36,807 nucleotides of DNA from positions 1 through 36,807 of IMG/VR virus record IMGVR_UViG_3300037422_000161. One strand, 5' to 3'. Position numbers and translations under genes: made by a program. Source of the DNA: a virus. Taxonomy: Duplodnaviria > Caudoviricetes. Positions 3,616 to 32,580 of this stretch are shown one piece after another (the stretch's first letter is position 1; every line of letters starts with the position of its first letter). The notes under the pieces are model-generated. The model was not told where the DNA came from, searched no databases, and worked only from the letters and a program-made list of their open reading frames with translations.

Positions 3616-3631
3616 CCGACGTCCCGGCGAC

Positions 3632-3955
3632 ATGATCGGACGGCGGTTCGGGCGCTTGGTCGTTCTCCGTGATTCTGGTCTCCGCGGTCGGTCCGGCGAG
3701 ATTAAATACGAATGCGTTTGCGATTGCGGACAGATCTCTGTGTGTCGCGGCTCCTCGTTGCGCTACGGCAGCACAAGGAGCTGCGGGTGCGCCCGGACCG
3801 AGGCGCTCCGAAGACGCCTGCCGCCGGGGGCCTCTATGCCTGGCTCTCACCTTAAGTCCGGGAACACCAAGTCGTGCGGTTGCCTCAAGAGGGAGATCGC
3901 CCGAGACACCATCAAGGCCAGGATTCGTGAGGCGATGAAGGACCGCGAACCATGA
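3632..3955 (+). CDS. HNH/AP2-endonuclease-associated Cys-rich N-terminal domain without nuclease domain
   Basis: GRRFGRLVV...CVCDCG...LRYGSTRSCGC and a second LKSGNTKSCGC; lower GC than neighbours. Confidence 0.7.
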   Translation: MIGRRFGRLVVLRDSGLRGRSGEIKYECVCDCGQISVCRGSSLRYGSTRSCGCARTEALRRRLPPGASMPGSHLKSGNTKSCGCLKREIARDTIKARIREAMKDREP

Positions 3956-4125
3956 CGCCCGCAGACTTCCGCGACCTCGTCTCCCGGATGCGCGCCGCGC
4001 AACGCGACTACTTCCGCTCGCGCAGCCCCGCGGCGCTCCGCCTCTCGATCGACCTCGAGCGCCAGGTCGACGCGGAGCTGCGGAGCGAGCCGGGGCTCTT
4101 CGACGACCCGGTAGCGCATGGGTGA
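3952..4125 (+). CDS. Small phage helical protein
   Basis: ATGA coupling; MTPADFRDLVSRMRAAQRDYFRSRSPAALRLSIDLERQVDAEL. Confidence 0.65.
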   Translation: MTPADFRDLVSRMRAAQRDYFRSRSPAALRLSIDLERQVDAELRSEPGLFDDPVAHG

Positions 4126-4501
4126 CACCGTCGACCGCCGTGCCGACGAGCGCAGCGCTGCCCGCCGCCGCGCCGACGAGCGGCCGGCCCAACGCGCGAT
4201 CCTCAACTGGCTCGGCTCGAGACCGTGGTGCCGCGCCTGGCGCTCCACTACCGGCGTGTTCGTCACGCCCGACGGCCTGCGCGTCGTCAGCGTCAACCTT
4301 CCGGGCGCGGCCGACATCACTGGCATCCTGCGCGGAGGACGGCGCCTCGAGGTCGAGGTCAAGTCCGCGACCGGGCGGCAGTCCGGAAAGCAACGCGCGT
4401 TCGAGCGCATGGTCACCGCGATGGGCGGCGTCTATCTCGTCGCCCGAACCGTCGAGGAAGTCCGCGTGCAGCTCGCGGCGATGGGGTACGGGGATGGGTG
4501 A
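4118..4501 (+). CDS. VRR-NUC (PD-(D/E)xK) nuclease, probable Holliday-junction resolvase
   Basis: PGAADITG...LEVEVKSATGRQSGKQRAF...GGVYLVART. Confidence 0.88.
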   Translation: MGDTVDRRADERSAARRRADERPAQRAILNWLGSRPWCRAWRSTTGVFVTPDGLRVVSVNLPGAADITGILRGGRRLEVEVKSATGRQSGKQRAFERMVTAMGGVYLVARTVEEVRVQLAAMGYGDG

Positions 4502-6947
4502 CCGGGGACGCGGCGTCAACGAGGTCCTGCTCTCCGAGGCCCGCGCCGCGCTCGCGCGTGGCTGGGCCCTGATCCCGCTCAACGGCAAGGTCCCGCTGCA
4601 GCTCGGGTGGAGCACCGCGCCGCACGCGACCGAGGCCGACGTGACGGCGTGGGTCGCGGCGGGACACAACCTCGGGCTGCGCACCGGGGCCGCGTCGGGC
4701 GTGTTCGTCGTCGACGTCGACACCGCCAAGGGCGGCGACACGTCCGCGCTCGAGCTGCCCGACACCCCCATGGTCCTGACCGGCGGGGGCGGGCGGCACC
4801 TCTACTACCGCGCGCCCGAGCCGTGCCCCGGCAACAGCGCGTCGAAGCTCGCGCCCCACGTCGACACCCGCGGCGACGGAGGCCAGGTCGTGTTCGTCGG
4901 CTCCCTGCACCCCGTCACGGGGCAGCGGTACGAGTGGGGCCCTGGGCAGACCCCGGAGGACATCGACCTCGCGGTGCTCCCGCTCGAGGTCCTCGCGCGC
5001 CTGCTGGACCGCCAGTCCTCCCCCGCGGCCCCACGGTCGGCCCCGACACCCGCGGCCGACCGGTACGCCGGCGCCGCGCTCGTCGGCGAGACCCGCGCGG
5101 TCGCGGAGGCGCCACGCGGCGCACGCAACCAGACGCTCAACCGCGCGGCGTTCTCTCTCGGCCAGCTCGTCGCCGGCGGCGTCCTGCAGCAGTACACCGC
5201 CGAGTCGGCCCTGATCGGCGCCGCGGCCGCGTGCGGCCTCACGGCCGACGACGGCGAGTCCGCGGTTCTCGCCACCATCCGCTCCGGGCTCTCCGCGGGG
5301 TCCGGGTCGCCGCGCACCGCGCCAGAGCGGCCGGCGCCACGCGCGACACGCCGCGGCCTGCACGCCGTCCCGGCGGCGGGCGCGCCAGAGCCGCCGCCCG
5401 ATCAGATGCCGGCGCCGCCGAGCATCCTGGTCCCCGGCCCGCACCTGGACGCCGCGGGAGAGTTCCACGAGGTCGGGGTCGACGACTTCTGTGCCGCGGT
5501 GCTCGCGGTGGTGCCCGCGGGCGCGATCTACCGCCGCGCGGGCGTCGCGGGCGAGCTCGACGGGCCCCCGGGCGAACGGCGCTTCCGCGAGCTGACGAAC
5601 AGCCGCACCCGGTCGATCGTCGACCAGCACTGCCGGCTCGTCCGCTGGGTCCGCAAGCGCGGCGCCCCGGTCACATCCGAGCTGTACGAGTCATGCGGCC
5701 GCGACCTCGCGACCGTGGTCCTCGACGCGGCCGCGACCGCCGCGGCCGTCCGCGAGCTCCGGATGCTCGTCAGCTACCCGGTCTACACAGGCGAGGACGT
5801 CACCCCGGTGGCGGCCGGCTGGAACGCCGACTCCGGCGTCTACTACGACGAGCCTCCGGCCCTCGCCGGCACGGTGCCGGAGGACGACCCGGCCAGGATC
5901 CGCGCGGTCCTCGACGACATGGTCGTGGACTTCCCTTTCGCGGCCGATGCCGACCGGGACAACTTCCTCGGCCTGTTGCTGACCCCTATGCTCCGCCCGG
6001 CGATCGACGGCAACGTCCCGCTGCACTTGATCGTCTCCACGATCGAGCGGGCCGGCAAAACCAAGCTGGCCGAGCAGGTCCTCGGCCTCACGGTGCTGGG
6101 CCGGGAGACCCCCCCGATGCAACTCGGAGGCAGCGACGAGGAACGCGACAAGCGCATCCTGGCCTGCCTCCGCGCCGGCGACACGATCGTGCACGTCGAC
6201 AACGTCCGCGAGTTCCTCGACTCCGCCGCGCTCGCGTCGCTCCTGACCGGCCGCTACTACTCCGGCCGCGTCCTCGGCCACTCCGAGGTCGTGGCGGTCG
6301 AGAACCGCACCACGCTCGTCGCGACCGGCAACGCGGTCGAGGGCTCCCCGGAGATCGTCAAGCGCATCATCCCGATCCGCCTGCAGCCGAACACGGACGA
6401 GCCGGAGGCCCGGCGCGACTTCCGCCACCCCGACCTCCCGGGCTACATACGTGAGTCCCGCCCCCAGGTGATCGCCGCCCTCCAGGGCGCGGTGGAGCTG
6501 TGGCGTGCCGGCGGCCGCTGGCGCTACCCCCGGCCGATCGGTGGATTCGAGAGCTGGACGGCGATCGTCGGCGGCGTCATGGCCGCCGCGGGCCGCATGC
6601 ACTGGCTCGGCAACGTGGAGCGCTGGCGGCGCGCCGCTGACCCGCAGAGCGAAGACCTGCGCGCGCTGGTCGAGGAGTGGGGAGTCAGGTACGGGGAGCT
6701 CGAGGTCACGCCGGCGCAGCTCCTTAAGGTCGCGGACGAGATCGGTGTGTTCGGCGGCATCCTACGCCAGCCGACCGAGAGGGGGCGGCTGACGGCGTTC
6801 GGGATGCGGGTCCTGCGTCGAAACGTCGGCCGGGTCGTCGGCGAGGTCGCCATACGGTTCGTGCAGAGCGGGAATAGCAGGCTGTTCCTCCTAGATCGGG
6901 ACCTTTCAAGTCCCGAGGGTCCCGAAGGTCCCGGCCGAAATCCTTGA
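4494..6947 (+). CDS. Bifunctional primase-polymerase (Prim-Pol) with C-terminal NTPase/helicase-like domain
   Basis: GWALIPL.GKVP, NLGLRTG, VVDVD, TGGGGRHLYY, DTRGDGGQVV, RNQTLNRAAFSLGQ; C-terminal RAGKTKLA and VHVDNV. ATG 4494 overlaps the VRR-NUC end. Confidence 0.88.
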   Translation: MGDRGRGVNEVLLSEARAALARGWALIPLNGKVPLQLGWSTAPHATEADVTAWVAAGHNLGLRTGAASGVFVVDVDTAKGGDTSALELPDTPMVLTGGGGRHLYYRAPEPCPGNSASKLAPHVDTRGDGGQVVFVGSLHPVTGQRYEWGPGQTPEDIDLAVLPLEVLARLLDRQSSPAAPRSAPTPAADRYAGAALVGETRAVAEAPRGARNQTLNRAAFSLGQLVAGGVLQQYTAESALIGAAAACGLTADDGESAVLATIRSGLSAGSGSPRTAPERPAPRATRRGLHAVPAAGAPEPPPDQMPAPPSILVPGPHLDAAGEFHEVGVDDFCAAVLAVVPAGAIYRRAGVAGELDGPPGERRFRELTNSRTRSIVDQHCRLVRWVRKRGAPVTSELYESCGRDLATVVLDAAATAAAVRELRMLVSYPVYTGEDVTPVAAGWNADSGVYYDEPPALAGTVPEDDPARIRAVLDDMVVDFPFAADADRDNFLGLLLTPMLRPAIDGNVPLHLIVSTIERAGKTKLAEQVLGLTVLGRETPPMQLGGSDEERDKRILACLRAGDTIVHVDNVREFLDSAALASLLTGRYYSGRVLGHSEVVAVENRTTLVATGNAVEGSPEIVKRIIPIRLQPNTDEPEARRDFRHPDLPGYIRESRPQVIAALQGAVELWRAGGRWRYPRPIGGFESWTAIVGGVMAAAGRMHWLGNVERWRRAADPQSEDLRALVEEWGVRYGELEVTPAQLLKVADEIGVFGGILRQPTERGRLTAFGMRVLRRNVGRVVGEVAIRFVQSGNSRLFLLDRDLSSPEGPEGPGRNP

Positions 6948-7070
6948 AGACGGGACCTCGGAACCTTTTAGACCTCTCCCCCTCAGTGCATGGAGAGTAC
7001 ATAGGGATTTCCCCTATGTGTACGCGTATGCAAGTGGCGGGAGAAGCCCCCGGAGGTCCACTAGGTCCCG
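6897..7070. repeat. Putative replication origin: (A/G)GGTCCCG-type iterons in both orientations around an AT-richer palindrome
   Basis: Copies at 6897, 6908, 6917, 6926, 6951, 6959, 7054 and 7063; inverted repeat ACATAGGG/CCCTATGT at 6999-7019. Confidence 0.6.
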
Positions 7071-7083
7071 CGGAGCCGGATCC

Positions 7084-7335
7084 GTGAGCCGCCCCGCTCC
7101 ACGCTGCCCCATCTGCGGCCTGCGTCCGCCCCGTAACCTCGAGGCCGCGACCTGCAACCCATGCCGCGGAGCCGTCGACGAGCTCCGGCGGCTACCACCA
7201 GCCGACCGCGCTCGCGCACTCGCCCACGCGCTGATCCGCGTCCGCCGCTGCTGGGCCGCACTGCACGGCGAGCAGGCGGTACAGGCGAACCTCGGAGCCC
7301 CGCCGCGGGTGGCAGGAAAGCCTGCCAGATCTTGA
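7084..7335 (+). CDS. Small Zn-finger protein
   Basis: GTG 7084 after GGAG; CPICG...CNPC. Confidence 0.55.
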   Translation: MSRPAPRCPICGLRPPRNLEAATCNPCRGAVDELRRLPPADRARALAHALIRVRRCWAALHGEQAVQANLGAPPRVAGKPARS

Positions 7336-7361
7336 CGGCTCCCCGATGTCGGGTGTAGCCA
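7332..7361 (+). promoter_or_regulatory. Candidate late promoter upstream of the terminase genes
   Basis: TTGACG -35, spacer containing palindrome CCCGA-TG-TCGGG, then GGGTGTAGCCAT; weak -10. Confidence 0.35.
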
Positions 7362-7405
7362 TGCTCGCGCGAGAGTCCCCGGGAGATGCCCCATGAGCCG
7401 TCGCG

Positions 7406-7957
7406 ATTGACGCACGCACCCCATCCGGCCCACGGACACCCGGCCCACGGACGATCTGTGGGGCCAAGAACCGGCGTGGCCACCCATGTGGGAACCGCCC
7501 TATCGCCGGGCGGAAGCGCTGCCGGATGCACGGGGGAAACCAGCACAAACTACCCGAGGGGCAGCGCGGCGGGGCGAAACCGACGAGCTTCCTGTACCGC
7601 CGCCACCTCCACGCGAGCGAGCGGGAGGCTTTCGACGCCGCCGCCGTTGACTCGATCGACGACGAGATCCGGCTGGCCAAAGCGAACCTCGACGCGGCGG
7701 TTAAGGCTTGGGCCGCCGATCCTCGAGGTGGGGTTGTCCAGTCGCGGGGGGACAGCGTCATCCGCGAGCGCCTGTGGTTCGATATCGTCCGCGAGCACGT
7801 CGAGTGCGTCGCGAAGCTCCTCCGCACGAGGATTGCGATGGGCCTCGGCTCCGGCGGTGGCGAGGAAGACATCGATGGGTACGAGTCGTGGCTAGCGGCG
7901 CAGCGTGCCGGGGGACCGCCCGCCGAACCACCCGGCTCGTCGTCGGGTGCGTCCTGA
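7406..7957 (+). CDS. terS: Terminase small subunit with HGGxSTG-like Zn-binding N-terminus; start uncertain
   Basis: Frame upstream of ATG 7526 encodes ICGAKNRRGHPCGNRPIAGRKRCRMHGG; SIDDEIRL motif; directly precedes terL. Confidence 0.7.
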   Translation: MDARTPSGPRTPGPRTICGAKNRRGHPCGNRPIAGRKRCRMHGGNQHKLPEGQRGGAKPTSFLYRRHLHASEREAFDAAAVDSIDDEIRLAKANLDAAVKAWAADPRGGVVQSRGDSVIRERLWFDIVREHVECVAKLLRTRIAMGLGSGGGEEDIDGYESWLAAQRAGGPPAEPPGSSSGAS

Positions 7958-9504
7958 TGGCGATTCCGACGGCCGACGCCCTGGCCGCGCTGCGCGACCC
8001 CGCGTACCACCGGCACCTGATGTTCCGCCGTGTGGACTCCGTCCTCGAGCGCCAGCTCGGCCGCGAGCTCGAGCCGCACGAGGCGCAGTCCAAGCTGCGT
8101 GGGCCACAGCTGTCGATCGTCCGCCGTATCGAGCGCGCGATCGCCGCGCGCGCCGGCGAGAAGATCTCGGTGCTCATGGCGCGGCAGACCGGCAAGAACG
8201 AGATCGAGGGCTTCCTCGAGACGCGCGCGCTGAGGGTGTGGTGCGGGATCCCTGGGTCGACCTGGGTGCGGACGGCGCCGACGCACAAGCCGCAGATCGT
8301 GAACTCGAAGCTGCGGCTCGAGAAGCACCTGCTGTGCGATCCGCTGATCGCCGGACGCTACCGCAAGCGCGAGGGGTACATCTACGAGCTGGGCAAGGCG
8401 CAGGTGCACTTCCTGTCCGGCGGGAGGACGGCGCAGGTCGTCGGTGACACCGCGTCGATCGCGCTGTCGGTCGACGAGGCGCACAAGATCGACCGGGACA
8501 AGTTCGAGGAGGACTTCGCCCCGTTCACGGCATCGACGAACGCGCCCACGATCCTGTGGGGTGTGGCCGCGGCCAAACAGGACCTGCTCCACCGCTACCG
8601 CGAGGAGGCCCGCGGCACCGACCGCGTGATGGTGTTCCCGGCCGCGGTGTGGTGCGAGTTGTCGAAGCCCTACGCAGGCCACTACGAGACGCGCCGGCGC
8701 GAGCTCGGCGCCGACCACCCGGTGATCTTGACCCAGTACGACCTGGTTCCCGTCGAGGCCATCGGGGCGTACCTGAATCCCGCGCAGCGCGCTGCGCTGT
8801 TCGCGGGCGACCACCCGCGTCTCGAGGCTCCGCGCGCCGGGATGTCCTACGGCATCCTGGTCGACATCGGCGGCGAGGTCGAGTACGAGGCCGACAGCGA
8901 CGAGGTGCGCGAGCTCGAGCCCGGGCGCGACAGCACCCAGGTCCTGATCGTCGAGTGGGATCCGCGAGCGCCGCAGGAGCCGTACCCGGTGACGCGGATC
9001 GTCAACGCCCTCACGTGGACCGGGAAGCAACACGAGGCGGCCGGTCCCGAGATCGTGAAACTCTGCCACCACTGGCGCGTCGGCGTCGGAGCCATCGACG
9101 CCGTCGGCGTCGGCGAGGCCACCGCGGGCTACGTGAGCCGGCGCGTTCCCGCGGTCGCGCCGTACAAGGCGACGTCGACGACGGTGTCCGAGGACTGCTT
9201 CGACCTCCTGGCCCGGTTGAACTGCGGGACCATCACCGCCTGGCGCGCGGACACGGCCGCGGACGCCGAGCTGCGCGAGCTCGAGGCGCAGAGCCGGCAC
9301 ACGCGCTACGAGATCCGGGGCCACACGAAGATGCGCCTCAAGAAGCCGACCGGCATCGGCACGTCGGACCTGCACATCGACATGGTCAAGGCGCTGACCT
9401 ACGCGCGCCTGGTCGTCGGCCGCGCCCCCTACTCCGGCCTGCTGGGCTGGATGGAGCAGAAGGCCGAGGCTGCGCGTGCCGCGCGGGAGGCGCGGAAGTC
9501 GTAG
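7957..9504 (+). CDS. terL: Terminase large subunit
   Basis: MARQTGKNE Walker A, LSVDEAH Walker B, C-terminal nuclease-type acidic motifs (LVDIGG, AIDAVGVG, HIDMVKA); TGATG coupling at 7955-7959. Confidence 0.88.
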   Translation: MAIPTADALAALRDPAYHRHLMFRRVDSVLERQLGRELEPHEAQSKLRGPQLSIVRRIERAIAARAGEKISVLMARQTGKNEIEGFLETRALRVWCGIPGSTWVRTAPTHKPQIVNSKLRLEKHLLCDPLIAGRYRKREGYIYELGKAQVHFLSGGRTAQVVGDTASIALSVDEAHKIDRDKFEEDFAPFTASTNAPTILWGVAAAKQDLLHRYREEARGTDRVMVFPAAVWCELSKPYAGHYETRRRELGADHPVILTQYDLVPVEAIGAYLNPAQRAALFAGDHPRLEAPRAGMSYGILVDIGGEVEYEADSDEVRELEPGRDSTQVLIVEWDPRAPQEPYPVTRIVNALTWTGKQHEAAGPEIVKLCHHWRVGVGAIDAVGVGEATAGYVSRRVPAVAPYKATSTTVSEDCFDLLARLNCGTITAWRADTAADAELRELEAQSRHTRYEIRGHTKMRLKKPTGIGTSDLHIDMVKALTYARLVVGRAPYSGLLGWMEQKAEAARAAREARKS

Positions 9505-11974
9505 CCTCGCCAAGCGGCTGCCGCCCGGCGTGGTCCGCACCGCGCCCCTGTCGGTGACGCTGCCGGAGTTCTTCGACCCGGTCTCCGGGCGTGCGCTCGG
9601 CGATCGCGCGGCGTCGCTGATGCCGAGCGCGTCTCGTCCGTTCCCCGCCGGCGAGCCGCCTCCGACCGGGCAGCCCACGGGCTCGCACCCGCGAGCGCTC
9701 ATCCCGCCGCCGTTCCAGAACACAACCGGCCACCGCCGGCGGTGGCGCGGGATCGACCTCACGCCGTTCGCGCAGCTCCGGGCGCTGTCGCGTTTCGACC
9801 TGGTCCGGGTCGTGATTCGCGACATCAAGGGCCAGTGCCAGGGGATCGAGCTCGAGGTCGCGGTCCGCGACGAGTTCAAGGACCAGGCCCGGGCGCTGCA
9901 GCCGAAGGTCGACGCGGCCCGCGCGTTCGTCGAGTGCCCGGACCCGCTCGCGGACCTGGACCTCGCGGGGTGGGTCGGCAAGGCGATCGAGGAGATCTTA
10001 GTCACCGACGCGCTGTCGCTCTACCCGATCTTCTCGAAGGGTGGCGAGCCGCTCGGACTCGGCCAGATCGACGGCGCGACGATCAAGCCGCTCGTCGACG
10101 ACCTCGGCCGGCCTCCGCTGCCGCCGAACCTGGCCTACCTGCAGTACGTGCACGGCCTGCCGGAGACGGGCTTCTACCAGCCGCTCGGCACGCCGTCGAG
10201 CCGCGAGCTGTGGTACCTGCCGTACGAGCGGCAGCCCGACTCGCCGTACGGCTACAGCAGCACCGAGCAGGTGCTCATGACCGTCAACCTGGCGATCCGC
10301 CACACCCTGCACGACCTCGCGTACTACACGAGCGGCAGCCTCCCGGACTCGCTCTACACGATGCCCGAGGGGTGGAACCAGGAGACGATCGAGAAGTTCC
10401 AGCTCTGGTGGGACGACGTCCTGGACGGCCGCAGCGATCGCCGCGCCGGCGGCGTGCGATTCGTTCCGCAGGGCACCTACACCGCGACGAAGACCCGGGA
10501 GTTCAAGTACGACTTCCTCGAGTGGCTCGGCCGTGTGATCGCGTGGGGCTTCGGCGTGTCGCCGCTGCCGATCATGCGGATCTCGAACCGCGCGCAGGCC
10601 GACCGGATGGAGCAGAGCGTCTCGGAGTCGGGCGTCCGGCCGCTGATCGGCTTCGTGGTGCGCATCCTGAACCGCTACGTTCAGCGCGTGCTAGGCCTGG
10701 CGGAGATCGAGGTGCGGCTGCGTGACGACGAGGTCGAGGACCCCGCGGTCGTGGCCACGCGGAACGTGTCCTACGTGCACGGCGGCATCCGGACGCTGAA
10801 CGCCACCCGCGCGGACCTCGGCGAGGAGCCGTACCCGGCCGAGTTCGGCGATCGCCCGTTCGTGATGACGCCCTCGGGCCCGCTGTTCCTCGACACGATC
10901 GAGGAGGAGCGCAAGAGGCGTGAGGAGCAGGCGGCCGCGCTGGCGGCGAGGCTGGGCGGCGGCGGCCAGCCGGGCGGCGGCGCTCCCGGGGCGGGTCCCG
11001 TAACCGACCCGGAGCCCGACCCCGATACCCTCACCGAAGAGCCCGCGCTCGAGCGCCTGCACCGCTGCCACGTCGAGCACCGCGGGCGCGTCCGCGATGA
11101 CCTGCAGAAGCGTCACCGCGTGCAGAAGCGCCACCCGGGGCGCGCGTTCGTCTCGACGCTGATCCCGCCGCGGGGCGCCGCGCGGCGGTTCCAGAAGGCC
11201 GAGCTCGCGCTGACGACGGAGCAGAAGGCGCTAGAGGCCTCGCTGCGCACGGCCGTGTCCGCGTGGCTCGCTGCGCAGCTCCCGGTGGTGACGGCGTGGG
11301 CGATCGGCTTCCTGCCACCGGCGCCAGCGGCGAAGCTCGCGAAGCAGCTCCCGCTGCCGCCGTTCGTCGGCGAGAAGGACCTGTTCAACGCCATCTCGGC
11401 CGTGCTGTTCGAGGCGCACCAGGTGGGCGCCGGCGACGCCGCGCTGTCGATCGCGGCCGACCTGAGCACTCCGTCCGAGACCGCGCTGGCCTACGCGCAG
11501 GAGCGCGCGGCCGAGCTGGTCGGAAAGACGTGGATCGCGGGCCAGCTGGTCGACAACCCGAGCCCGAAGTTCGCGATCACGGACACGCTGCGGCAGGACG
11601 TGCAGTCGCTCGTCACGCGGGCGATCGCGGAGGGCATGTCGCCGCAGGACCTAACGTCGAAGATGGTCGAGACGTTCGGGCCGTGGCGCGCGGAGACGAT
11701 CGCGCGCACCGAGACGGGGATCGCGTACAACGCCGGCGCCGCGGACGTCTACGAGGCCTCGGACGTCGCCCACGTCGAGATCCTCGACGGCGAGGGCTGC
11801 CTGCCCAGCGGGCACCTGGCGGGCGCGCCGAAGGCCAGCGGGTCGGTCGGCGTCGTCGAGGAGAACGCGGAGGCGGACGGGCAGGTCTGGACCGTCGCGC
11901 AGTGGCGCGAGCTGATGCTGGGGCACCCGAACTGCGTCCGTGCCGGCGTGCCGTACTTCGCTGGGGAGGTCTGA
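9497..11974 (+). CDS. Portal protein fused to Mu gpF-like head morphogenesis domain; start AGT 9497 or GTG 9476
   Basis: Portal motifs (IDGATIKP, SPYGYS..EQ, FGVSP, GIRTLNATRADLG) and C-terminal RAETIARTET..AYN...HPNCVR. Confidence 0.88.
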   Translation, partial: SRSLAKRLPPGVVRTAPLSVTLPEFFDPVSGRALGDRAASLMPSASRPFPAGEPPPTGQPTGSHPRALIPPPFQNTTGHRRRWRGIDLTPFAQLRALSRFDLVRVVIRDIKGQCQGIELEVAVRDEFKDQARALQPKVDAARAFVECPDPLADLDLAGWVGKAIEEILVTDALSLYPIFSKGGEPLGLGQIDGATIKPLVDDLGRPPLPPNLAYLQYVHGLPETGFYQPLGTPSSRELWYLPYERQPDSPYGYSSTEQVLMTVNLAIRHTLHDLAYYTSGSLPDSLYTMPEGWNQETIEKFQLWWDDVLDGRSDRRAGGVRFVPQGTYTATKTREFKYDFLEWLGRVIAWGFGVSPLPIMRISNRAQADRMEQSVSESGVRPLIGFVVRILNRYVQRVLGLAEIEVRLRDDEVEDPAVVATRNVSYVHGGIRTLNATRADLGEEPYPAEFGDRPFVMTPSGPLFLDTIEEERKRREEQAAALAARLGGGGQPGGGAPGAGPVTDPEPDPDTLTEEPALERLHRCHVEHRGRVRDDLQKRHRVQKRHPGRAFVSTLIPPRGAARRFQKAELALTTEQKALEASLRTAVSAWLAAQLPVVTAWAIGFLPPAPAAKLAKQLPLPPFVGEKDLFNAISAVLFEAHQVGAGDAALSIAADLSTPSETALAYAQERAAELVGKTWIAGQLVDNPSPKFAITDTLRQDVQSLVTRAIAEGMSPQDLTSKMVETFGPWRAETIARTETGIAYNAGAADVYEASDVAHVEILDGEGCLPSGHLAGAPKASGSVGVVEENAEADGQVWTVAQWRELMLGHPNCVRAGVPYFAGEV

Positions 11975-11975
11975 T

Positions 11976-12005
11976 GCGGCCGCCGACTCAGCGGCCGCCG
12001 ACTCA
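11976..12005 (+). repeat. 15-bp tandem repeat (GCGGCCGCCGACTCA)x2
   Basis: Exact tandem duplication just after the portal stop. Confidence 0.8.
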
Positions 12006-12114
12006 GCGCCGGGCCTACGAGGCGCCGCAGGTGATTCCAGCGCCGCCCTTCGGCGGCTCCCCACGAATCGCGTTCCTCATGTCCGCCTGGGACTGCGAGT
12101 GGCTCAGGTCTCAT

Positions 12115-12187
12115 CGCCGCGTGGAGCAGACGGTAGCTCGCCGGTCTACTTTGCCGGAGGTCGCTGGTTCGAGTCCAGCCGCGGCTA
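12115..12187 (+). tRNA. Initiator-type (tRNA-fMet-like) tRNA with anticodon ACU (reads AGU); CCA not encoded
   Basis: C-GCCGCG/CGCGGC-U-A acceptor with C1:U72 mismatch and A73; D stem GAGC/GCTC (A11-U24); anticodon stem CCGGT/GCCGG with loop CT-ACT-TT; variable AGGTC; T arm GCTGG-TTCGAGT-CCAGC. Confidence 0.9.
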
Positions 12188-12211
12188 CCCCCCTGATACC
12201 GGAGGCGCTGA

Positions 12212-12574
12212 AGTCCCCGCACTGACGTACCCGTAACCGTCGTCGGCGTGGCCGGCCTCGCGCTGGGCGCGCCCGCGACCGAGGTCGCGGGCGACACGGT
12301 CAACGGGCACAAGATGCGCAACACCGGCCGGGAGTGGCTGCACGTGCGCAACACGAGCGGGTCGCCCGAGACGGTGACGCTCATCATCCCGCGCACGGTC
12401 GACGGCGCGGCCGTCGAGGACCCCCAGCGCACCATCGCCGCCAACGAGTCCCGGTCGTTCCCGCCGTTCAACGAATCGGTCTATGACCCCGGCTCCGGTG
12501 CCGAGGACGTCGGCTACCTGACCTTCGACGTGTCGTCCGCGAACCTGCGGTTCCAGGCGTTCCGCAAGAGCTGA
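12212..12574 (+). CDS. Small beta-rich virion (head-associated) protein; predicted AGT start
   Basis: GGAGG-cgctga-AGT-CCC-CGC-ACT gives xPRTDVPVTVVGVAGL...GDTVNGH.MRNTGREWLHVRN; GTG 12248 has no SD. Confidence 0.75.
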   Translation, partial: SPRTDVPVTVVGVAGLALGAPATEVAGDTVNGHKMRNTGREWLHVRNTSGSPETVTLIIPRTVDGAAVEDPQRTIAANESRSFPPFNESVYDPGSGAEDVGYLTFDVSSANLRFQAFRKS

Positions 12575-12600
12575 GCCCCCGGGCCAGACGGAGACCCACG

Positions 12601-13842
12601 ATGAGCAACGCGAGATTCGAGCGGTTCGTCCCGATCACCAAGGTCAACGAGGAGACCCGGGAGGTCCACGGCATTCTCGCGCTCGAGCAGCCCGACCACG
12701 CGGGCGAGATCATGGACTACGAGAAGTCGAAGCCATTCATCCAGGAGTGGAGCGACTCGTTCAAGCTCGCGACCGGCGGCAAGAGCGCGGGCAACCTGCG
12801 CGCGATGCACGGCAACGTGTGCGCGGGGAAGTTCACGGCCGTCGAGTTCAACGATGCCGACAAGTCGGTCCCGGTGGTGGCGAAGGTGGTCGACGAGCAG
12901 GAGTGGGCCAAGGTCGTCGAGGGCTGCTACACGGGCTTCTCGATCGGCGGATCGTATGGCGACGTCTGGATGGACGGCAAGCTCAAGCGCTACATCGCCA
13001 AGCCGGTCGAGGGCTCGCTGGCGGACAAGCCGTGCATGCCCGGCGCAACGTTCACGCTGATCCGTGCCGACGGCTCGGTCGAGCTGCGGAAGTTCGTCGC
13101 CGCGCCGCCCGCGCCCACCGAGGCCGTCGCGAAGTGGCTCGACGGCTCGCTGCGCAAGGCGCTCGAGGCCGCGGTCGCGGCCGGCGACTCCGCGATCGAG
13201 TCGATCAAGGCCATGGCGGTGCAGATGCTCGGCGAGGCCGGGAAGCCCGACACGTGGTCGATCGAGGACCTGATGCAGGCAATCCGCCGGGTCGCCGGCG
13301 CGCAGTATTCGGCGGCATCCGCCGGTGGAGGACTGAGCATGTCGACGCAGCCCGAAGTCACGAAGACCGCGCCGGTCGCCGGCGCCCCCGCGGCGACCGC
13401 GGACCCCGCGCCGCCGGCACCGGCCACCGCGCCGGCCGGCGACGTCCACATCCTGAAGCAGATCACCGACACGCTCGGAGCGCTGCACAAGGCGCTGACC
13501 GACCAGGCCGGCGAGCAGAAGGCCGCCCGGGAGGAGCTCGGCAAGGTCGTGGAGGCCGCGACGGCGGCCGCGACGTCGAGCATTCTCGAGAAGGCAGGGG
13601 CTCAGTTGGCGGAGGTCCAGAAGTCGCTCGAGGAGCGCATCGGGAAGATCGAGGCCCAGCCCGCCCGTCCCGGCGTCCCGGTGGACAAGACGGTCGGGGT
13701 GACCGGCGCGCACCCGCTCGCCGCGGAGTTCGGAAAACTGGAGGCGCTGATCCAGACGCTCGAGAAGTCGGGGGCCGACTCGGCCACGATCCGCGACGTT
13801 CGGATGGCGGCCTCGCAACTGGCGCTCGCGCCGCTGCGCTAG
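12601..13842 (+). CDS. Prohead protease with C-terminal scaffold region
   Basis: ITKVNEETREVHG, NLRAMHG, YTGFSIGG, EGSLADKPCMPGATF; C-terminal Ala/Pro linker and coiled coil. Confidence 0.85.
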   Translation: MSNARFERFVPITKVNEETREVHGILALEQPDHAGEIMDYEKSKPFIQEWSDSFKLATGGKSAGNLRAMHGNVCAGKFTAVEFNDADKSVPVVAKVVDEQEWAKVVEGCYTGFSIGGSYGDVWMDGKLKRYIAKPVEGSLADKPCMPGATFTLIRADGSVELRKFVAAPPAPTEAVAKWLDGSLRKALEAAVAAGDSAIESIKAMAVQMLGEAGKPDTWSIEDLMQAIRRVAGAQYSAASAGGGLSMSTQPEVTKTAPVAGAPAATADPAPPAPATAPAGDVHILKQITDTLGALHKALTDQAGEQKAAREELGKVVEAATAAATSSILEKAGAQLAEVQKSLEERIGKIEAQPARPGVPVDKTVGVTGAHPLAAEFGKLEALIQTLEKSGADSATIRDVRMAASQLALAPLR

Positions 13843-13863
13843 CGGCCACAACGGAGGTGCTGA

Positions 13864-15333
13864 AGTAACCCGCAACTGACGATGGACACGCTCGGCCAGG
13901 TGGCCGAGGCGATCAAGGGCCTGCGCGCCAACCCCGCGCTGGCGAAGGCGATCGACCTCGCGACCGGCCTGACGGGCTTCAACTTGGAGGCTCCCGCGAA
14001 GCTCCAGGTGCCGCTGCTCGCGCCGTTCCGGCAGAGCATCGGGCGCCGGGTCTGGCCCGGCAACGGGACGAACTGGAAGGCGATCACCGCGGTGACGCCG
14101 ACCGGGACACTGAAGGCCGCGGAGGCCACGAAGGCCAACGCGTGGGCGCTCACGAAGGTCGACAAGTCGACGACTTACGGGTCGTACGGACGAGCCGGCA
14201 GCGTGACGTGGGAAGGCCAGCTCGCCGGCATGAACTTCGAGGACGTGCGCGCTCGCGACGAGGCGATCACGCTCCTTCAGTTCCTGCGCGAGGAGGAGGC
14301 CTGCATCCTCGGCGGGCACGCCGGCACCGCGCTCGGCGCGAGTCCGACGATCACCGCGGTGGCGGCGGCGGCCGGAGGCGCGCTCGTCGACGACCAGTAC
14401 TTCTTCATGATCGTCTCGCTGACGATGGCGGGCGCGATCCGGGCCGGGCGCATCATGCGGCCGACGCCGGGCACGAACAAGTACGACTTCCTGGCCGCGG
14501 ACGGGCAGACGCTGACGCTCGGCGACGGTCACGGGCTCGTGTCCGCCGAGGCCAACGCGACGGTCGCGGGCGGCGGCGGAGCCGGCCAGGTGACGCTGAC
14601 CTGGACGCCCGACCCGGAAGCCGTCGCGTACGCGGTGTACTGCGGCCTCACGACGGGCGCGGCGAACCTGAAGCTGCAGGGCGTCGTGTCCCAGACCGAG
14701 GTGATCATGACCTCGTTCGGCACGCTGGGCGCGGCCGCGTCGCTCGTCGCGGCCGCAGGCGACACGTCGAACAGCGCGCCGTTCAGCGGGATCCTCTCCC
14801 AGCTCGTGGCGGCCGGCTCGGGGGCCTACACGCGCAACCTGAACAACCCGCTGTCGGCGGCGTCGGGTCGCGGGATCGCCGAGATCGACCTGATGCTCGA
14901 CGACATCTACGACCGTGTGAAGGAGGAGCCCGACCGGCTGCTGATGGGATGGACGGAGCACCAGGCGATCGACGACAAGATGTCGGCGGTGGCCAACGAT
15001 CGCGTGAACCTCAACGTCACGGTCGGCGCGGACGGCGACCCCGGGGCGCAGATGCCGCGGTTCACGAAATACAAGTCCAGCCGCGGGAAGCTCATCCAGA
15101 TGGAGGAGAACCCGAACATCCCGGGCGGGATCATCATCGCGCTGAAGGACCGCGTCGCGTTGCCGAACTCGGAGGTCCCGTCGCCGTGGCAGATGCACAT
15201 GGCGGCGGAGGTCATGCGGCTCGACTACGCGATGACGGCGCCGAAGGACGAGTTCGAGGTGCGGGCGCGCGGCGCGCTCGCGGGCTACGTGCCGTCGTTC
15301 CAGGGCGTCCTCTACAACATCCACGAGGCGTGA
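13864..15333 (+). CDS. Major capsid protein; predicted AGT start
   Basis: Follows the protease/scaffold; GFNLEAPAK..., EEEACILGG, central beta-rich insertion; GGAGG-tgctga-AGT in frame, whereas ATG 13882 lacks an SD. Confidence 0.85.
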   Translation, partial: SNPQLTMDTLGQVAEAIKGLRANPALAKAIDLATGLTGFNLEAPAKLQVPLLAPFRQSIGRRVWPGNGTNWKAITAVTPTGTLKAAEATKANAWALTKVDKSTTYGSYGRAGSVTWEGQLAGMNFEDVRARDEAITLLQFLREEEACILGGHAGTALGASPTITAVAAAAGGALVDDQYFFMIVSLTMAGAIRAGRIMRPTPGTNKYDFLAADGQTLTLGDGHGLVSAEANATVAGGGGAGQVTLTWTPDPEAVAYAVYCGLTTGAANLKLQGVVSQTEVIMTSFGTLGAAASLVAAAGDTSNSAPFSGILSQLVAAGSGAYTRNLNNPLSAASGRGIAEIDLMLDDIYDRVKEEPDRLLMGWTEHQAIDDKMSAVANDRVNLNVTVGADGDPGAQMPRFTKYKSSRGKLIQMEENPNIPGGIIIALKDRVALPNSEVPSPWQMHMAAEVMRLDYAMTAPKDEFEVRARGALAGYVPSFQGVLYNIHEA

Positions 15334-15362
15334 CCCTGGCCGGCTTCCGAGACTGAACGAAC

Positions 15363-15396
15363 CGGGCGGCCGGGGGCATCGCGCTCCCGGCCGCCC
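15363..15396 (+). terminator. Strong GC hairpin after the capsid gene (terminator or mRNA stabiliser)
   Basis: GGGCGGCCGGGGGC-ATCGC-GCTCCCGGCCGCCC; no U tract. Confidence 0.5.
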
Positions 15397-15409
15397 AACG
15401 AGGAGCGCG

Positions 15410-15685
15410 ATGGCGAGGAAGGACGATCGACACGAGACGCACGCGGCGGGAGTCGCCCAGGGTGCTGCGCCCGAGAGTGCGGCGGATCCGGTGGCGGCGG
15501 ATCCGGTGGCCCAGGAGGCCCCGCCTCCCGCGGCCCCGTCGGCGACGATCACGATGAAGGCCCCCGCGGGCGCCTGCGACGTGTGCTTCGACGGCGAGAC
15601 CTACCCGGTCGCGAAGGACGGAACGGTGAAGCTCCCGCGCGCGGCTGAGCGCGTGCTCGTCCCGCTGGGCTTCCGCACCACGTAG
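15410..15685 (+). CDS. Small Ala/Pro-rich virion-associated protein
   Basis: AGGAG SD and ATG; position after the capsid gene. Confidence 0.7.
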   Translation: MARKDDRHETHAAGVAQGAAPESAADPVAADPVAQEAPPPAAPSATITMKAPAGACDVCFDGETYPVAKDGTVKLPRAAERVLVPLGFRTT

Positions 15686-15695
15686 GGCGCGCTGA

Positions 15696-16334
15696 AGTAT
15701 CGGCACGACCGCAGAACTGAAGGCCTGGGCGCGGACGAAGCTCGACTCCGCGGACGCCACCCTGCTGACCCGCGTCCTCACCGCGGCCTCGGACTACATC
15801 GAGGACCGCACCGGGAGGCTGTGGGCCAAGGCGGAGCACACGCTCTACTTCGACGGTGACCGCGCGGACGGGCGCAACCGCGAGCTGCTGATCGTGCCGC
15901 CGCGCTACCGGCCGGCGCACTACGCTCCAGGGACCGACGAGATCACCGTCACCGAGGACGGCACGGCGCTCGTTGTCGCGGTCGGGTACTCGACCACCGC
16001 GGACGTGATCCTGCGCAACGCCAACGACCCGCGGCAGAGGCTCGCGCTGGTACGACGCGGGACGAGCCCGCAAAACCTGCTGGCCGACTCGCCGGCGACG
16101 CCCGGATGGGCCGGCGGCGTGCAGAACATCGCCGTCACGCTGAAGGCGGGGCCCGCCACTGGCACGGCCCCCGCGGACCTCGTCCAGGCGGCCTACGAGC
16201 TGGCCTACCTGTTCTACGACGACCCGACGCGCGTGGGGAAGAGTTCGTCTTCGCGCGCGGGCGCGTCCATCACGGTCGAGCGCGACCTGTCGAAGATCGC
16301 GCAGATGGCGATCGCGTCGAGGGCCGTGGCGTGA
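15696..16334 (+). CDS. Head-tail connector (gp6/gp15-like adaptor); predicted AGT start
   Basis: From AGT 15696: xIGTTAELKAWARTKLDSADATLLTRVLTAASDYIEDRTGRLW...NIAVTLKAG...PADLVQAAYELA; first canonical start (GTG 15894) is 66 codons downstream. Confidence 0.82.
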   Translation, partial: SIGTTAELKAWARTKLDSADATLLTRVLTAASDYIEDRTGRLWAKAEHTLYFDGDRADGRNRELLIVPPRYRPAHYAPGTDEITVTEDGTALVVAVGYSTTADVILRNANDPRQRLALVRRGTSPQNLLADSPATPGWAGGVQNIAVTLKAGPATGTAPADLVQAAYELAYLFYDDPTRVGKSSSSRAGASITVERDLSKIAQMAIASRAVA

Positions 16335-16972
16335 GCGCCCCGATCACCAGCGGCGCCGTGGTCATCGACCTGGGCGAGCTCGAGCGCCTGGTCGAGGCGC
16401 AGGGCATCAAGCTGCCGGCCACGGTGGCCGTCGGCCTGCGCGAGTCCGTGCTGCTGATGATCGCGGACGTCACCAAGAACCGCCTGCGCGGCCAGTACCT
16501 CCACCGGCGCACCGGGACGCTGATCCGCAGCATCACCGCGTCGCCGCCGGCGAGGCCGGAGGTCACCCTGCAGGGCGACGGGGGCGGGCTCGTCCGCGAC
16601 TGGTTCGGGACGCACCTCGATTACGGCCGCGCGCACGAGCTCGGCTTCCGCGGCCGCGTGCAGATCCCGGCGCACACCCGGCGGCTCACGCGGAACGTCA
16701 AGCGAGCGAAGGCGCGGCTGCGTCAGGCGCAGAAGCGTCTCGGCCCGGCCGCCCCGGTGGGCGGCCTGAGCAGCGCGGGCTTCGCCGTCAAGCGCTTCGC
16801 CCACGTCCGACCGCACAGCCGGTTCATGCGCATCCGCGCGCGCCACTACCTGCGCGACACGATCGCCGCGAACACCGGGAAGGCCCGGCTGCGCGTCATG
16901 CGCGCGGTCCTCCTGCTCCTCCGGACCGGCCGCGTGCCGCGGGGCTCCGAGGTGCGCAGTGCACTCTCGTGA
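16331..16972 (+). CDS. Neck/tail completion protein (HK97 gp10 / virion morphogenesis-like)
   Basis: GTGA coupling; RRTGTLIRSI, GTHLDYGRAHELG, RARHYLRDTI. Confidence 0.75.
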   Translation: MSAPITSGAVVIDLGELERLVEAQGIKLPATVAVGLRESVLLMIADVTKNRLRGQYLHRRTGTLIRSITASPPARPEVTLQGDGGGLVRDWFGTHLDYGRAHELGFRGRVQIPAHTRRLTRNVKRAKARLRQAQKRLGPAAPVGGLSSAGFAVKRFAHVRPHSRFMRIRARHYLRDTIAANTGKARLRVMRAVLLLLRTGRVPRGSEVRSALS

Positions 16973-17964
16973 GCAACGTCGTCCAGGAGCCGGGATTCGA
17001 GGACTCGGCGCCGTGGCAGCTGTTCAGCAACGCGAGCATCGGCGGCGCGGAGGGCGTGCACGGCGGAGCCGCGGCGCTCGTGCTCCCGATCTTTCGCACG
17101 GCCGGCGGCATCGTCGCCCAGGGCGAGGGGCGGCAGTCCGTGACGCTCGTCCCTGGGCTGGCCTACCAGGGGCTCGCGGCCTGGGTCAAGTGGAAAGGCG
17201 GCAGCACCTACCCGCTGAGGTTCCAGCTCGACGACGGCAGCGGGATCCTCTCCACGGTGCTCACGGTCCCGACGTCGGACATGCCCGAGGACACGTTCAC
17301 GCGGGTCCAGGTCGTCGGGACGCACCTGGCGGTCGGGGCCGCGGGGCGCGTCTCGTGGCTCGGGTTCCCCGCCGCGGGGCAGTCGGCATTCGAGGTCACG
17401 ACGTGGGTCGTGGACGACGTCGAGCTCGACGACGGCAGCGTCGTCCCGTCACCGGAGGACGTCGTGGCGTTTCGTAAGTGGCTCGTGGCCGAGCGGCTGC
17501 GCGACAAGCTGCTGACGATCCAGGGGGCGGGGGCGGGCTACTGGACCACGCTGGGCGATCGCGTGTTCTACAACCTAATCTATCCGCACGAGGACGGCGC
17601 GCCGCGCGACCCGTACGTCTGCATCCCCTTCGACGGCAGCGCGGGCCCGCTCCCGGTGATGGAGCATCGGTCGCTCAAGCTGACCTGGCCGCAGCCGATC
17701 TACGCCTTCGCTCCCAACCCCAACGAGGAACTGCTCGACCGCTCCGGCGAGCTCGCGCGCCGCACCGCGGACCTCGAGGACGACCTGGTGCGCGCGCTGA
17801 TGAGCCCCGACGTGGCCTTCGGCGACCTCGTCAAGGACAGCCGCCTGCTCCCGATCGTCCCGCACGCCGGCGAGGATCCGGAGTTCCACTGGGGTCAGGT
17901 CAACGCGGTCGTGGAGTTCGACGCAATCGTGCAGCACTCCAATCTCGGCCCGGGAGGTGTTTGA
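16969..17964 (+). CDS. Tail terminator-like protein with N-terminal carbohydrate-binding-like domain
   Basis: N-terminal VVQEPGFED...VVDDVEL jelly-roll-like pattern; C-terminal LRDKLLTIQG.G.GYWT...DLEDDLVRAL. Confidence 0.55.
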   Translation: MSNVVQEPGFEDSAPWQLFSNASIGGAEGVHGGAAALVLPIFRTAGGIVAQGEGRQSVTLVPGLAYQGLAAWVKWKGGSTYPLRFQLDDGSGILSTVLTVPTSDMPEDTFTRVQVVGTHLAVGAAGRVSWLGFPAAGQSAFEVTTWVVDDVELDDGSVVPSPEDVVAFRKWLVAERLRDKLLTIQGAGAGYWTTLGDRVFYNLIYPHEDGAPRDPYVCIPFDGSAGPLPVMEHRSLKLTWPQPIYAFAPNPNEELLDRSGELARRTADLEDDLVRALMSPDVAFGDLVKDSRLLPIVPHAGEDPEFHWGQVNAVVEFDAIVQHSNLGPGGV

Positions 17965-18354
17965 AGTAGCGCGCAACGGATAGAGCTCGTCGCCTCCGCG
18001 CCGAAGACCGCGAGCGGAGAAAGCGACTCCCGCAAAGTCTCGACCGTCTCGATGCTGTTCGTCGGCATCGACATCACCGCCTACGCCGGAGGCGCCGGCT
18101 TCACCGCCTGGCTTCAGGGCTCCGACGACGGCGGGACCACCTGGTACGACCTGCTCGCAGACCAAGTGCTGCCCTCGACGGGCGTCGAGGTCGGCGGCAC
18201 ACCCGCAACGAACGTCCGCGACATCTGCGACGACGCCGCGGCGGCCGGCAAGTTCTCGGCCGTCTACAAGCACATCCCGACCGACTACATCCGCCTCGCC
18301 TGGGACCTCGACGGCACGAGCGTGACGTTCAGCAGCTCGGCCGTCGGGAAGTAG
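17965..18354 (+). CDS. Beta-rich structural protein; predicted AGT start
   Basis: GGAGG-tgtttga-AGT gives xSAQRIELVASAPKTASGES...LQGSDDGGTTWYDL...YIRLAW; ATG 18052 has no SD. Confidence 0.72.
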   Translation, partial: SSAQRIELVASAPKTASGESDSRKVSTVSMLFVGIDITAYAGGAGFTAWLQGSDDGGTTWYDLLADQVLPSTGVEVGGTPATNVRDICDDAAAAGKFSAVYKHIPTDYIRLAWDLDGTSVTFSSSAVGK

Positions 18355-18372
18355 GGTGCAGAGGAGACACGC

Positions 18373-18651
18373 ATGCGCATGCTGAAGTTCGGCGGCCCGA
18401 ATCTCCCAGAAGGCACGAGCACCTGGTACGACACGCCGAGCCCCGCGAAGAAGGGCGAGTACGTCCAGGTGCGTGCGGAGCCCGGGCTGATCGTGCCCGC
18501 GGACCACGTCATGAAGTTCGCCGGCGCCGACGAGCGCGGCGCGGCGAAGCTCGAGCCCAACGCGGACTACTACGTCGCGAGCGGACGCGCCGAGTTCGCG
18601 GAGGAGAGCGCGCCGGCGTCAGCCCCCGCGCGCGCGAAGCCCAAGGAGTGA
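18373..18651 (+). CDS. Hypothetical tail-region protein
   Basis: GAGGAG SD and ATG. Confidence 0.65.
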   Translation: MRMLKFGGPNLPEGTSTWYDTPSPAKKGEYVQVRAEPGLIVPADHVMKFAGADERGAAKLEPNADYYVASGRAEFAEESAPASAPARAKPKE

Positions 18652-18707
18652 TCGAGCCGAGGTAGTGACCGACAACCCGTGCCGGCGCGCCCGGCGAGGA
18701 GGAACAG

Positions 18708-19238
18708 ATGGCTCTCGACGCAACCAAAATCATGGTGGGCGCCGGTGTGTTCTCGATCGGTGACTGGGTGACCGCGGGCGGGCCGGGGACGCTCGTCGAC
18801 GTCGGCCACATCAAGAGCCCGTTCGAGCTCGCGGCGTCCTTCGACAACTTCGACATCGAGACGGAGCGGCTGCAGGGGATCCTGGACCACCGTCCGACGA
18901 AGACCGACTACACGCTGAAGGTCGCGTTCCACCAGGCCGAGGTCGAGTGGCTCCGCATCGCACTCGCGCAGCCGGCGACGAACAAGAGCGGCACCGGCGC
19001 CAACCTCACGCTGCTGGTCGGCGAGCGCGCGAACCTGGACCACCAGGCGACGCTCGTGACCGCGGGCCCCGGGACGACGGGCGTGCGGACGCTGACATTC
19101 TGGCGGCTGAAGCTGATGTCGGTCGAGGCGATCCAGGTGGGCAAGGGGGTCGAGCAGCTCTACATCGCGACCTTCCGAGTGAAGCACGATCCGACGCTCT
19201 CGACCGCGGACAAGAACTGGAAGCAGGTCGACGCGTAG
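18708..19238 (+). CDS. Major tail tube protein
   Basis: GAGGAGG SD; MALDATKIMVGAG...LVDVGHIK; size and position before chaperone and tape measure. Confidence 0.75.
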   Translation: MALDATKIMVGAGVFSIGDWVTAGGPGTLVDVGHIKSPFELAASFDNFDIETERLQGILDHRPTKTDYTLKVAFHQAEVEWLRIALAQPATNKSGTGANLTLLVGERANLDHQATLVTAGPGTTGVRTLTFWRLKLMSVEAIQVGKGVEQLYIATFRVKHDPTLSTADKNWKQVDA

Positions 19239-31686: not shown

Positions 31687-32580
31687 ATGGATCCTACCAC
31701 CCCGGTCGAATCGATCCGGATCGACTCCATCGTGATTGGTGAGCGGCGGCGGGCGAGGCTCGGGAGCCTCGCATCGCTCAAGCGCAGCATCGAGACCCAC
31801 GGCATCATCCACCCGATCGTCGTCCGAAACGGCAACGCCCTGGTGGCCGGGGCCAGGCGGCTGGAAGCGTGCCGACAGCTCGGGTGGGAGAAGATCCCGG
31901 CCCGCCGGGTCGAGCGCATGAGCGACGACGACCTGCGATCGATCGAGCTCGACGAGAACGAGCAACGGCTTGCCCTGGCCGACTACGAGTCCAGCCGGCA
32001 ACGTCTCGCGGAGATCCGGCAGGCGGAGGCGGAGGCGAGAGCGGAGGCGGAAAGTGTCCCGGCCCGGGACACTTCGTCGGGGAAGCGTAAGAGCCGGAAG
32101 AAGCCCGGATCAAAACGGGACATCGAGAAGCGAACGGGCGTGAGCAAGGCCGGACAGCAGCGCCTCGAATCCCACGTCGCGATCGCGGAGCGCTTCCCGT
32201 TCATGCAGAAAGAGCCGTGGAAGCAGTACACCGTGCTGGAGGCTGGCGAGAAGATGGAGGCGATCCCGAAAGCCGAGCACAAGGCCGTCGCGGTCCTCAT
32301 CGACCAGCCGGGCGTGCCGCCGAAAAGCGCGATCAAGACGCTCGGGAACCTCGGCGCGATGGACGCCGGCCAGCGCGCTGAAATCTACGGGCTCGCCAAG
32401 AGCGCCGACCCGGAGGACAACAGCGCCGCGCTCACCATGGCCGCGCGGCTACCCCGGGAACCGCACCGGTGCGTGCTGGCGCTGACCGGGATCCGCCGAG
32501 AGCTGGAGAAATGCAAGAAGCACGCCGCGCTTGTCGAGAAGCTCGACCGGCTCATCGCCGAAGCGCGCAAGGAGGATTGA
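31687..32580 (+). CDS. ParB N-terminal domain protein
   Basis: IRIDSIVIGERRR...LKRSIETHGIIHPIVV...LVAGARRLEAC..LG...ELDENEQR. Confidence 0.88.
   Translation: MDPTTPVESIRIDSIVIGERRRARLGSLASLKRSIETHGIIHPIVVRNGNALVAGARRLEACRQLGWEKIPARRVERMSDDDLRSIELDENEQRLALADYESSRQRLAEIRQAEAEARAEAESVPARDTSSGKRKSRKKPGSKRDIEKRTGVSKAGQQRLESHVAIAERFPFMQKEPWKQYTVLEAGEKMEAIPKAEHKAVAVLIDQPGVPPKSAIKTLGNLGAMDAGQRAEIYGLAKSADPEDNSAALTMAARLPREPHRCVLALTGIRRELEKCKKHAALVEKLDRLIAEARKED

Follow-up and report, generated by a model that had tools for sequence, protein, structure and literature searches.

A phage-encoded tRNA with an initiator body and the anticodon ACU, and its probable use in starting virion genes at AGU

The tailed phage analysed here very probably runs a natural orthogonal form of translation initiation, in which an initiator-type tRNA with the anticodon ACU would start virion genes at GA-AGU (the hyphen precedes the start codon). 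AGU is the Watson-Crick codon of the anticodon ACU. To our knowledge, the CAU initiator has been treated as universal. The initiation reading draws on the body of the tRNA, on five genes that open at AGT, on the alignment of these openings with the starts of homologues, and on the co-variation of anticodon with start codon and of tRNA base 37 with mRNA base -1. The sequence elements of an orthogonal pair are present: an initiator body, a non-CAU anticodon, and a cognate codon that opens genes at SD distance.

The window (the whole stretch of 36,807 nt that was analysed) is an entire virus record, linear, with an estimated completeness of 78% and a GC content of about 70%. Its late module runs in the order terminase, portal, tRNA, a 120-aa gene, protease, capsid, adaptor and tail genes. 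One freshwater metagenome run contains the window, and no RNA run does among the sequencing runs listed; two contigs of the probable source run equal positions 9300-14649 and 14636-18400 with 0 differences, a match that is not independent of the window. A relative with 38% capsid identity lies inside an assembly of Candidatus Polarisedimenticolia (Acidobacteriota).

The tRNA gene is the only one that ARAGORN finds in the window, and it matches Rfam RF00005 at 51.1 bits (E 2.9e-8). Its minimum-energy fold is the cloverleaf, with a stability no greater than that of shuffled sequences at this GC content (z -0.42). The features described in the original prediction are all present. The acceptor end carries the elements of an initiator tRNA-fMet (the C1 x U72 mismatch, G2-C71, C3-G70 and A73), A11-U24 provides the purine11:pyrimidine24 pair of initiators, the anticodon stem contains G29-C41 and G30-C40, and CCA is indeed not encoded, A73 being followed by CCC. 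Also as described, the third anticodon-stem pair is U31.G39 where an initiator has G-C, and the loop reads C32 U33 A34 C35 U36 U37 U38, so that ACU and U37 stand in place of CAU and A37; position 20 is U. The claim that this is not a normal serine tRNA is upheld by a variable loop of 5 nt, A73 and U72, instead of the long variable arm, G73 and C72 of an elongator tRNA-Ser(ACU). The further claim of selection rather than decay agrees with an alignment of 17 sequences (window plus 16 relatives), in which 97.9% of cells pair and two-sided changes are seen at 12 of the 20 pairs; L083 and L100, both with matched start codons, share U31.G39. Judged on these sequence comparisons, the tRNA is a real, selected, phage-encoded initiator type, neither tRNA-fMet proper nor tRNA-Ser.

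Upstream of the tRNA lie an exact 15-nt tandem repeat and hairpins (11976-12005 and 12030-12047, + strand). The segment 12030-12047 is 78% complementary to 12201-12218, which contains the SD and AGT of the 120-aa gene, so excision of the tRNA might unmask the start of that gene. An 83-aa ATG frame with an SD (11974-12225, + strand) spans the tRNA; it has no PHROG match and is probably not a gene.

A scan for an SD plus the codon, together with a stop-to-stop gene map, identified five virion genes that open at AGT (Table 1), one of them 24 nt past the tRNA; the original prediction had overlooked all five. In four of the five an in-frame stop lies immediately 5' of the AGT. All five have the context GA-AGT, in which A at -1 is complementary to U37 and G at -2 to U38 by wobble. 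The five sites were chosen without regard to bases -1 and -2; GA precedes 24 of the 193 AGTs in the window versus 5 of 5 sites (P about 3e-5). Among 22 coding-like frames of the window, 4 start with AGT directly past a stop (P about 2e-5), and internally AGT accounts for only 5 of 5524 codons in 17 window genes. Openings with an SD and the codon number 4 for AGT and 0 for GTA in the window, 0 and 5 in the relative G007, and 0 and 0 in G005.

Table 1. Positions of the tRNA gene, the AGT-opened genes and a candidate sixth site in the window
Feature	Position	Strand	Details
Initiator-bodied tRNA gene	12115-12187	+	cloverleaf; anticodon ACU 12148-12150; U37/U38 12151-12152; CCA not encoded
Portal + head-morphogenesis fusion (probable start)	9486..11974	+	SD GGAGG 9486-9490; start GA-AGT 9497; overlaps terminase gene end; phrog_2662
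120-aa gene	12201..12574	+	SD 12201-12205; in-frame TGA 12209-12211; AGT 12212; phrog_38030, weaker phrog_16194 'tail protein'
Major capsid protein	13853..15333	+	SD 13853-13857; in-frame TGA 13861-13863; AGT 13864; phrog_13692
Head-tail adaptor	15693..16334	+	in-frame TGA then AGT 15696; weak SD; phrog_442
129-aa conserved virion-module gene	17953..18354	+	SD 17953-17957; in-frame TGA; AGT 17965
Candidate sixth site	32043..32580	+	GGAGG + AA-AGT 32053, in frame in ParB-like gene 31687-32580

The AGT positions coincide with the places at which homologues start. Homologues of the adaptor (L004, L061), the 120-aa gene (L004, L063) and the capsid have ATG or GTG at the same codon or within one of it, and for the 129-aa gene the homologous ATG/GTG falls at offset 0 in five loci (L069, L077, L150, L057 and L004). 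The aligned N-termini of adaptor and 120-aa protein read MLITRAEV and MARGAVPI in homologues versus SIGTTAEL and SPRTDVPV in the window. The canonical codons lie further downstream: the first GTG of the 120-aa gene is codon 13, without an SD; the ATG at codon 7 of the capsid gene is also without one and would remove residues kept in homologues; the first ATG, GTG or TTG of the adaptor gene is a GTG at 15894 (codon 67); and in the 129-aa gene, whose AGT overlaps the TAG of the upstream gene (AGTAG), the first ATG is codon 30, again without an SD. The portal is the weakest case. The starts of its homologues lie 3-6 codons further on, in a segment that lacks ATG, GTG and TTG in the window, and the probable start at AGT has a rival in a GTG placed 7 codons upstream behind a weaker SD. 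The portal and head-morphogenesis domains form a single fused frame (9497-11974), as they do in several relatives. At the candidate sixth site, which lies 3' of the ParB domain, initiation would yield a possible tRNA-dependent C-terminal form of 175 aa.

The homologue search proposed in the original prediction, for covarying stems and other anticodons, has yielded 20 other initiator-like phage tRNAs. A pattern scan of viral contigs, which fixed the D stem and G29/G30 and left the acceptor stem free, gave 79 loci with 22 real tRNAs, 16 of them distinct; L060, L204, L339 and L341 make 20. Nine non-CAU anticodons are represented (UAC 8, GCU 3, AAC 2, UAU 2, and one each of ACU, UAA, UAG, CCU and CUA). 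Across the 17 aligned sequences the 1:72 mismatch is present in 16, A73 in 15 and G2-C71 in all; the acceptor stems of L076 and L107 differ from the initiator type. Other patterns added little: a strict ACU pattern and a strict C34 pattern each had 0 matches in viral contigs, a looser C34 pattern matched 3 loci of which 2 are tRNAs, and a relaxed RCU pattern matched at least 114 stretches in about half of the collection, with L204 the only addition among the matches listed.

For 11 of the 20 tRNAs the cognate codon (GTA, GTT, AGC, TTA or AGG) opens a gene, and base -1 mostly pairs with position 37. Four UAC tRNAs accompany GTA starts: L077, L079 (the same as L006 and L150), L060, and L135, where the tRNA has U37 and the start is TGA-GTA. 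The protease gene of L100 (UAA tRNA) opens at G-TTA, with C37 pairing to G at -1. L083/L121 carry an AAC tRNA and three TGA-GTT genes, encoding a ParB-like protein, an amidoligase and a protein of unknown function, and the terminase gene of L143, also with an AAC tRNA, opens at GTT. With the GCU tRNAs of L084, L110 and L204, tape-measure genes open at GA-AGC. The portal gene of L339 (CCU tRNA) opens at TAG-AGG, where G at -1 departs from the rule, as does C at -1 of the terminase GTA of L077. L204 and L339 were looked at after the rule had been fixed. In the remaining nine, a cognate start was not found for L076, L078, L107, L109, L113, L117, L144 and L146, and L341 is ambiguous; L109, the only other ACU tRNA, comes from a 9.5-kb fragment. 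The L109 portal gene (2200-4326) has a single in-frame TAG at 2971-2973, which may be an error, a defective copy or a site of read-through. In L341, an initiator-bodied tRNA with the amber anticodon CUA (919-994) occurs together with a terminase frame (7499-8962) that opens directly after a TAG and has no ATG until codon 55; this is possibly a natural amber initiator, whose -1 base and SD do not fit.

Capsid homologues were gathered at 55 loci of viral contigs, 15 of metagenomes and 1 of genomes, and most start at ATG. Capsid openings with an SD and GTA occur in four sets: L001/L064/L065, L003/L005/L058/L059/L060/L062, L057, and L006/L150. The initiator-bodied tRNAs of L006/L150 and L060 have the anticodon UAC and A37. 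In L150, T stands at -1 in 8 of 9 SD-plus-GTA openings, an unbiased count; in L060 the rule is imperfect, base -1 of ten GTA sites being T in 6, G in 3 and A in 1. A tally of 29 of 29 sites is partly circular, as the -1 match was a condition of the scan that supplied the G007 sites and four of those in L060. The capsid gene of L069 (391-1848) has an SD, TAG and then TCA where its sister L150 has GTA, from which an initiator with the anticodon UGA is predicted outside the 4.1-kb fragment. A tRNA was not found in the fetched DNA of the GTA-start fragments L001, L003, L005, L057, L059, L062 and L064, or in that of L069. As a negative control, G005, a 100% complete provirus with ATG/GTG starts, has no match to the covariance model of these tRNAs. 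(G007 is classed as a provirus as well.)

In a quick capsid tree, from which the truncated L003 was omitted, the users of AGT, of GTA and of GTA/TCA occupy three distinct positions amid canonically started relatives, which hints at repeated gain or exchange. A single-sequence capsid search of viral contigs gave no relative, a search with the 120-aa protein recovered only itself, and the capsid matches among GenBank phages are all less than 30% identical. No cultured phage with the system was found, 5 of 5 unannotated GenBank matches examined being CAU (42 and 55 records were listed). In L304, L305 and L306 (PaMx74, NTR1 and Pan5), tRNA-Met(CAU) genes stand unannotated in GenBank, the one in PaMx74 being initiator-like with U38. 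Among the host-type matches fetched from Acidobacteriota genomes, 29 of 29 show three G-C pairs and the loop CUCAUAA; in the G001 assembly, no CAU initiator was singled out by a loose pattern. None of the claims made here draws on G049 or G074, two unpublished genomes.

In the proposed mechanism, host RNase P together with 3' trimming would release the tRNA from the late transcript, the host would add CCA, and a host synthetase would charge the product. No helper protein common to the tRNA-bearing phages and missing from the ATG controls was found, which points to host enzymes for charging and processing. We infer, from the matched start sites only, that the tRNA is charged, formylated and enters the P site. 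The C1 x U72 mismatch would permit formylation and P-site entry, and G30-C40 would pass the IF3 check; formylation depends on the acceptor stem and not on the amino acid (PMC9976931), and the middle pair G30-C40 suffices in the E. coli initiator (PMC5389676). A34-C35-U36 would then pair with AGU, U37 with A at -1 and U38 with G at -2, a five-base reading of GAAGU. Initiation becomes stronger when base 37 of the tRNA is complementary to base -1 of the mRNA, G-U wobble included (PMC10018350). The upstream TGA would stop read-in from any upstream start. No AGC or AGA start in the window is convincing, which suggests that A34 is unmodified, so that AGU alone would be read; there is no sign of reading by inosine-34.

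The identity of the amino acid is the weakest step, since the tRNA fits the bacterial Arg set in all but A20 and retains only U36 of the Met anticodon set. The Arg set comprises A/G73, G2-C71, C3-G70, A20, C35 and U/G36 (PMC9976931); here C35, U36, A73, G2-C71 and C3-G70 agree and U20 does not, and A20 is also absent from L109, L084 and L110. No synthetase has identity elements that match the tRNA fully. ArgRS is our tentative best guess as the charging enzyme; MetRS, somewhat less likely still, comes next.

What purpose such a mechanism would serve is less firmly indicated. We consider it an evenly balanced question whether it is a translational lock, which would silence essential late proteins in a lysogen or in early infection; portal, capsid and adaptor would be made only after the phage tRNA has accumulated and replaced host fMet-tRNA at AGU. 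The recoded genes are mostly essential virion genes, in a subset that differs per phage, and most genes keep ATG or GTG, a pattern that agrees better with a lock than with freedom from the need for host fMet-tRNA. Lysogeny is not evident for the window phage: a search of the window, which is 78% complete, revealed no tyrosine integrase. Because the tRNA gene is itself part of the late operon that it would control, and no sigma-70 promoter was found in 6900-19000 of the window, the effect of such a lock may be limited to a delay or a threshold.

Given the same initiation mechanism, a role in counter-defence is rather unlikely: a private initiator would permit synthesis of key proteins when host toxins (VapC-type) destroy or block tRNA-fMet. 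Nucleases are known to attack tRNA-fMet, and loop changes allow phage tRNAs to escape such enzymes (PMC10264068); the nine different anticodons are suggestive of an arms race. However, ATG/GTG starts are retained in the window by the genes for terminase, protease, major tail, tape measure and lysin, so that virions would still need host fMet-tRNA, and L084, L110 and L204 appear, in the region read, to recode only the tape-measure gene. Self-specificity, which we rate as equally improbable, would take the form of a lock and key against satellites or co-infecting phages, or of a neutral ratchet that makes the tRNA gene indispensable. The codons do differ between sister phages (GTA in L150, TCA in L069), the window uses AGT amid canonically started neighbours, and the recoded set varies by phage, yet in most cases examined at least one of its members is an essential virion gene; but with the tRNA in the same late operon, a late promoter activated in trans would also produce the key.

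Two readings dispense with initiation by the tRNA altogether. That a tRNA-shaped regulator pairs with GAAGU leaders outside the P site, the proteins starting at the next ATG/GTG or through host fMet-tRNA at a poor codon, could account for the five-base complementarity and for the lack of a fully fitting synthetase, and native fMet-tRNA has been reported to initiate weakly at unusual codons. This is nevertheless very improbable: the matched triplet lies in the reading frame, stands at SD distance and occupies the position of the homologues' ATG; the first canonical start of the adaptor gene is codon 67; and the 1:72 mismatch and A73 are conserved at positions that the search pattern left free. 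A serine elongator tRNA that reads AGU codons, as in the label Ser(act) that ARAGORN assigns from the anticodon alone, or a decaying fMet copy with chance AGTs, is scarcely credible, being already contradicted by the short arm and A73/U72, the near absence of internal AGT, the compensatory changes in the family and the co-variation of anticodon with start codon.

The initiation reading has its closest parallels in engineered systems. Anticodon-swapped derivatives of tRNA-fMet (i-tRNA-AAC, -UAC, -CCU and amber; 10.1101/2021.05.25.445580, 10.64898/2025.12.21.695813, 10.64898/2026.04.16.719103) combine, like the window tRNA, an fMet body with a foreign anticodon, and in engineered initiation with amber-start phiX174 biocontainment (10.1101/2024.07.29.605542) matched non-AUG starts on essential capsid genes are likewise served by host charging enzymes. 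In such work, an AAC initiator receives valine and initiates at GUU alone, and UAC and CCU initiators in E. coli give increases of up to 234- and 402-fold; the pair ACU/AGU is absent from those tested in the portions available, and ACU is not among the 12 anticodons of the 2026 initiator library as there described. Unlike these, the window system would be natural, encoded by the phage in cis, and altered at base 37 to match base -1. The literature covered, which included few subscription papers, offered only engineered and no natural precedents for initiation with a swapped anticodon.

Among natural systems, phages that recode stop codons (Borges et al., 10.1101/2021.08.26.457843) also use a phage tRNA to alter the reading of late genes, with a late/lytic lock proposed and with occurrence in prophages as well. 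The window system would differ in acting at initiation on single start codons rather than by read-through of internal stops; its late frames are open under table 11 and its sole tRNA is ACU. By analogy, the proposed lock would be the start-codon counterpart of stop-codon recoding, and it has a further parallel in the engineered amber-start phiX174. Bacterial tRNA-fMet and its natural 3GC variants (PMC5389676) share with the window tRNA the 1:72 mismatch, G2-C71, C3-G70, A73, A11-U24, G29-C41 and G30-C40, whereas ACU, U37 and U31.G39 differ. Nuclease-evading phage tRNAs (PMC10264068) likewise have an altered anticodon loop, but they keep their anticodon and the host meaning of the codon, whereas the window has a new anticodon and mRNAs changed alongside.

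New here are the AGU case, the nine-anticodon family, the negative control and the 37/-1 co-variation. On balance, we lean slightly towards a broader view in which private start codons (AGU, GUA, GUU, AGC, UUA, AGG, perhaps UCA and UAG) arose independently in many unrelated phages, together with a dedicated initiator tRNA for each codon that reads four to five bases; virion proteins would begin with a formylated residue other than Met (here possibly arginine), and the diversifying codons would form a self-specific translational key. If true, there is a natural, evolving code at initiation, hidden by standard gene callers that truncate proteins, and phages are able to rewrite the start of translation and not only its stops. 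It would also give a class of odd phage tRNAs a role that is open to test, and the evolved parts (base 37 matched to -1, the upstream stop) would be usable for orthogonal expression and biocontainment. An annotation error is also exposed, as database calls of capsid and portal proteins are N-terminally truncated in the window (P0002, P0044 and P0054) and in relatives (P0015, P0025, P0026 and P0031). Elsewhere in the window, GGTGGTAGGT occurs in two copies on the + strand (24987-24996 and 25057-25066), 70 nt apart and upstream of paralogous genes at 25065 and 25415.
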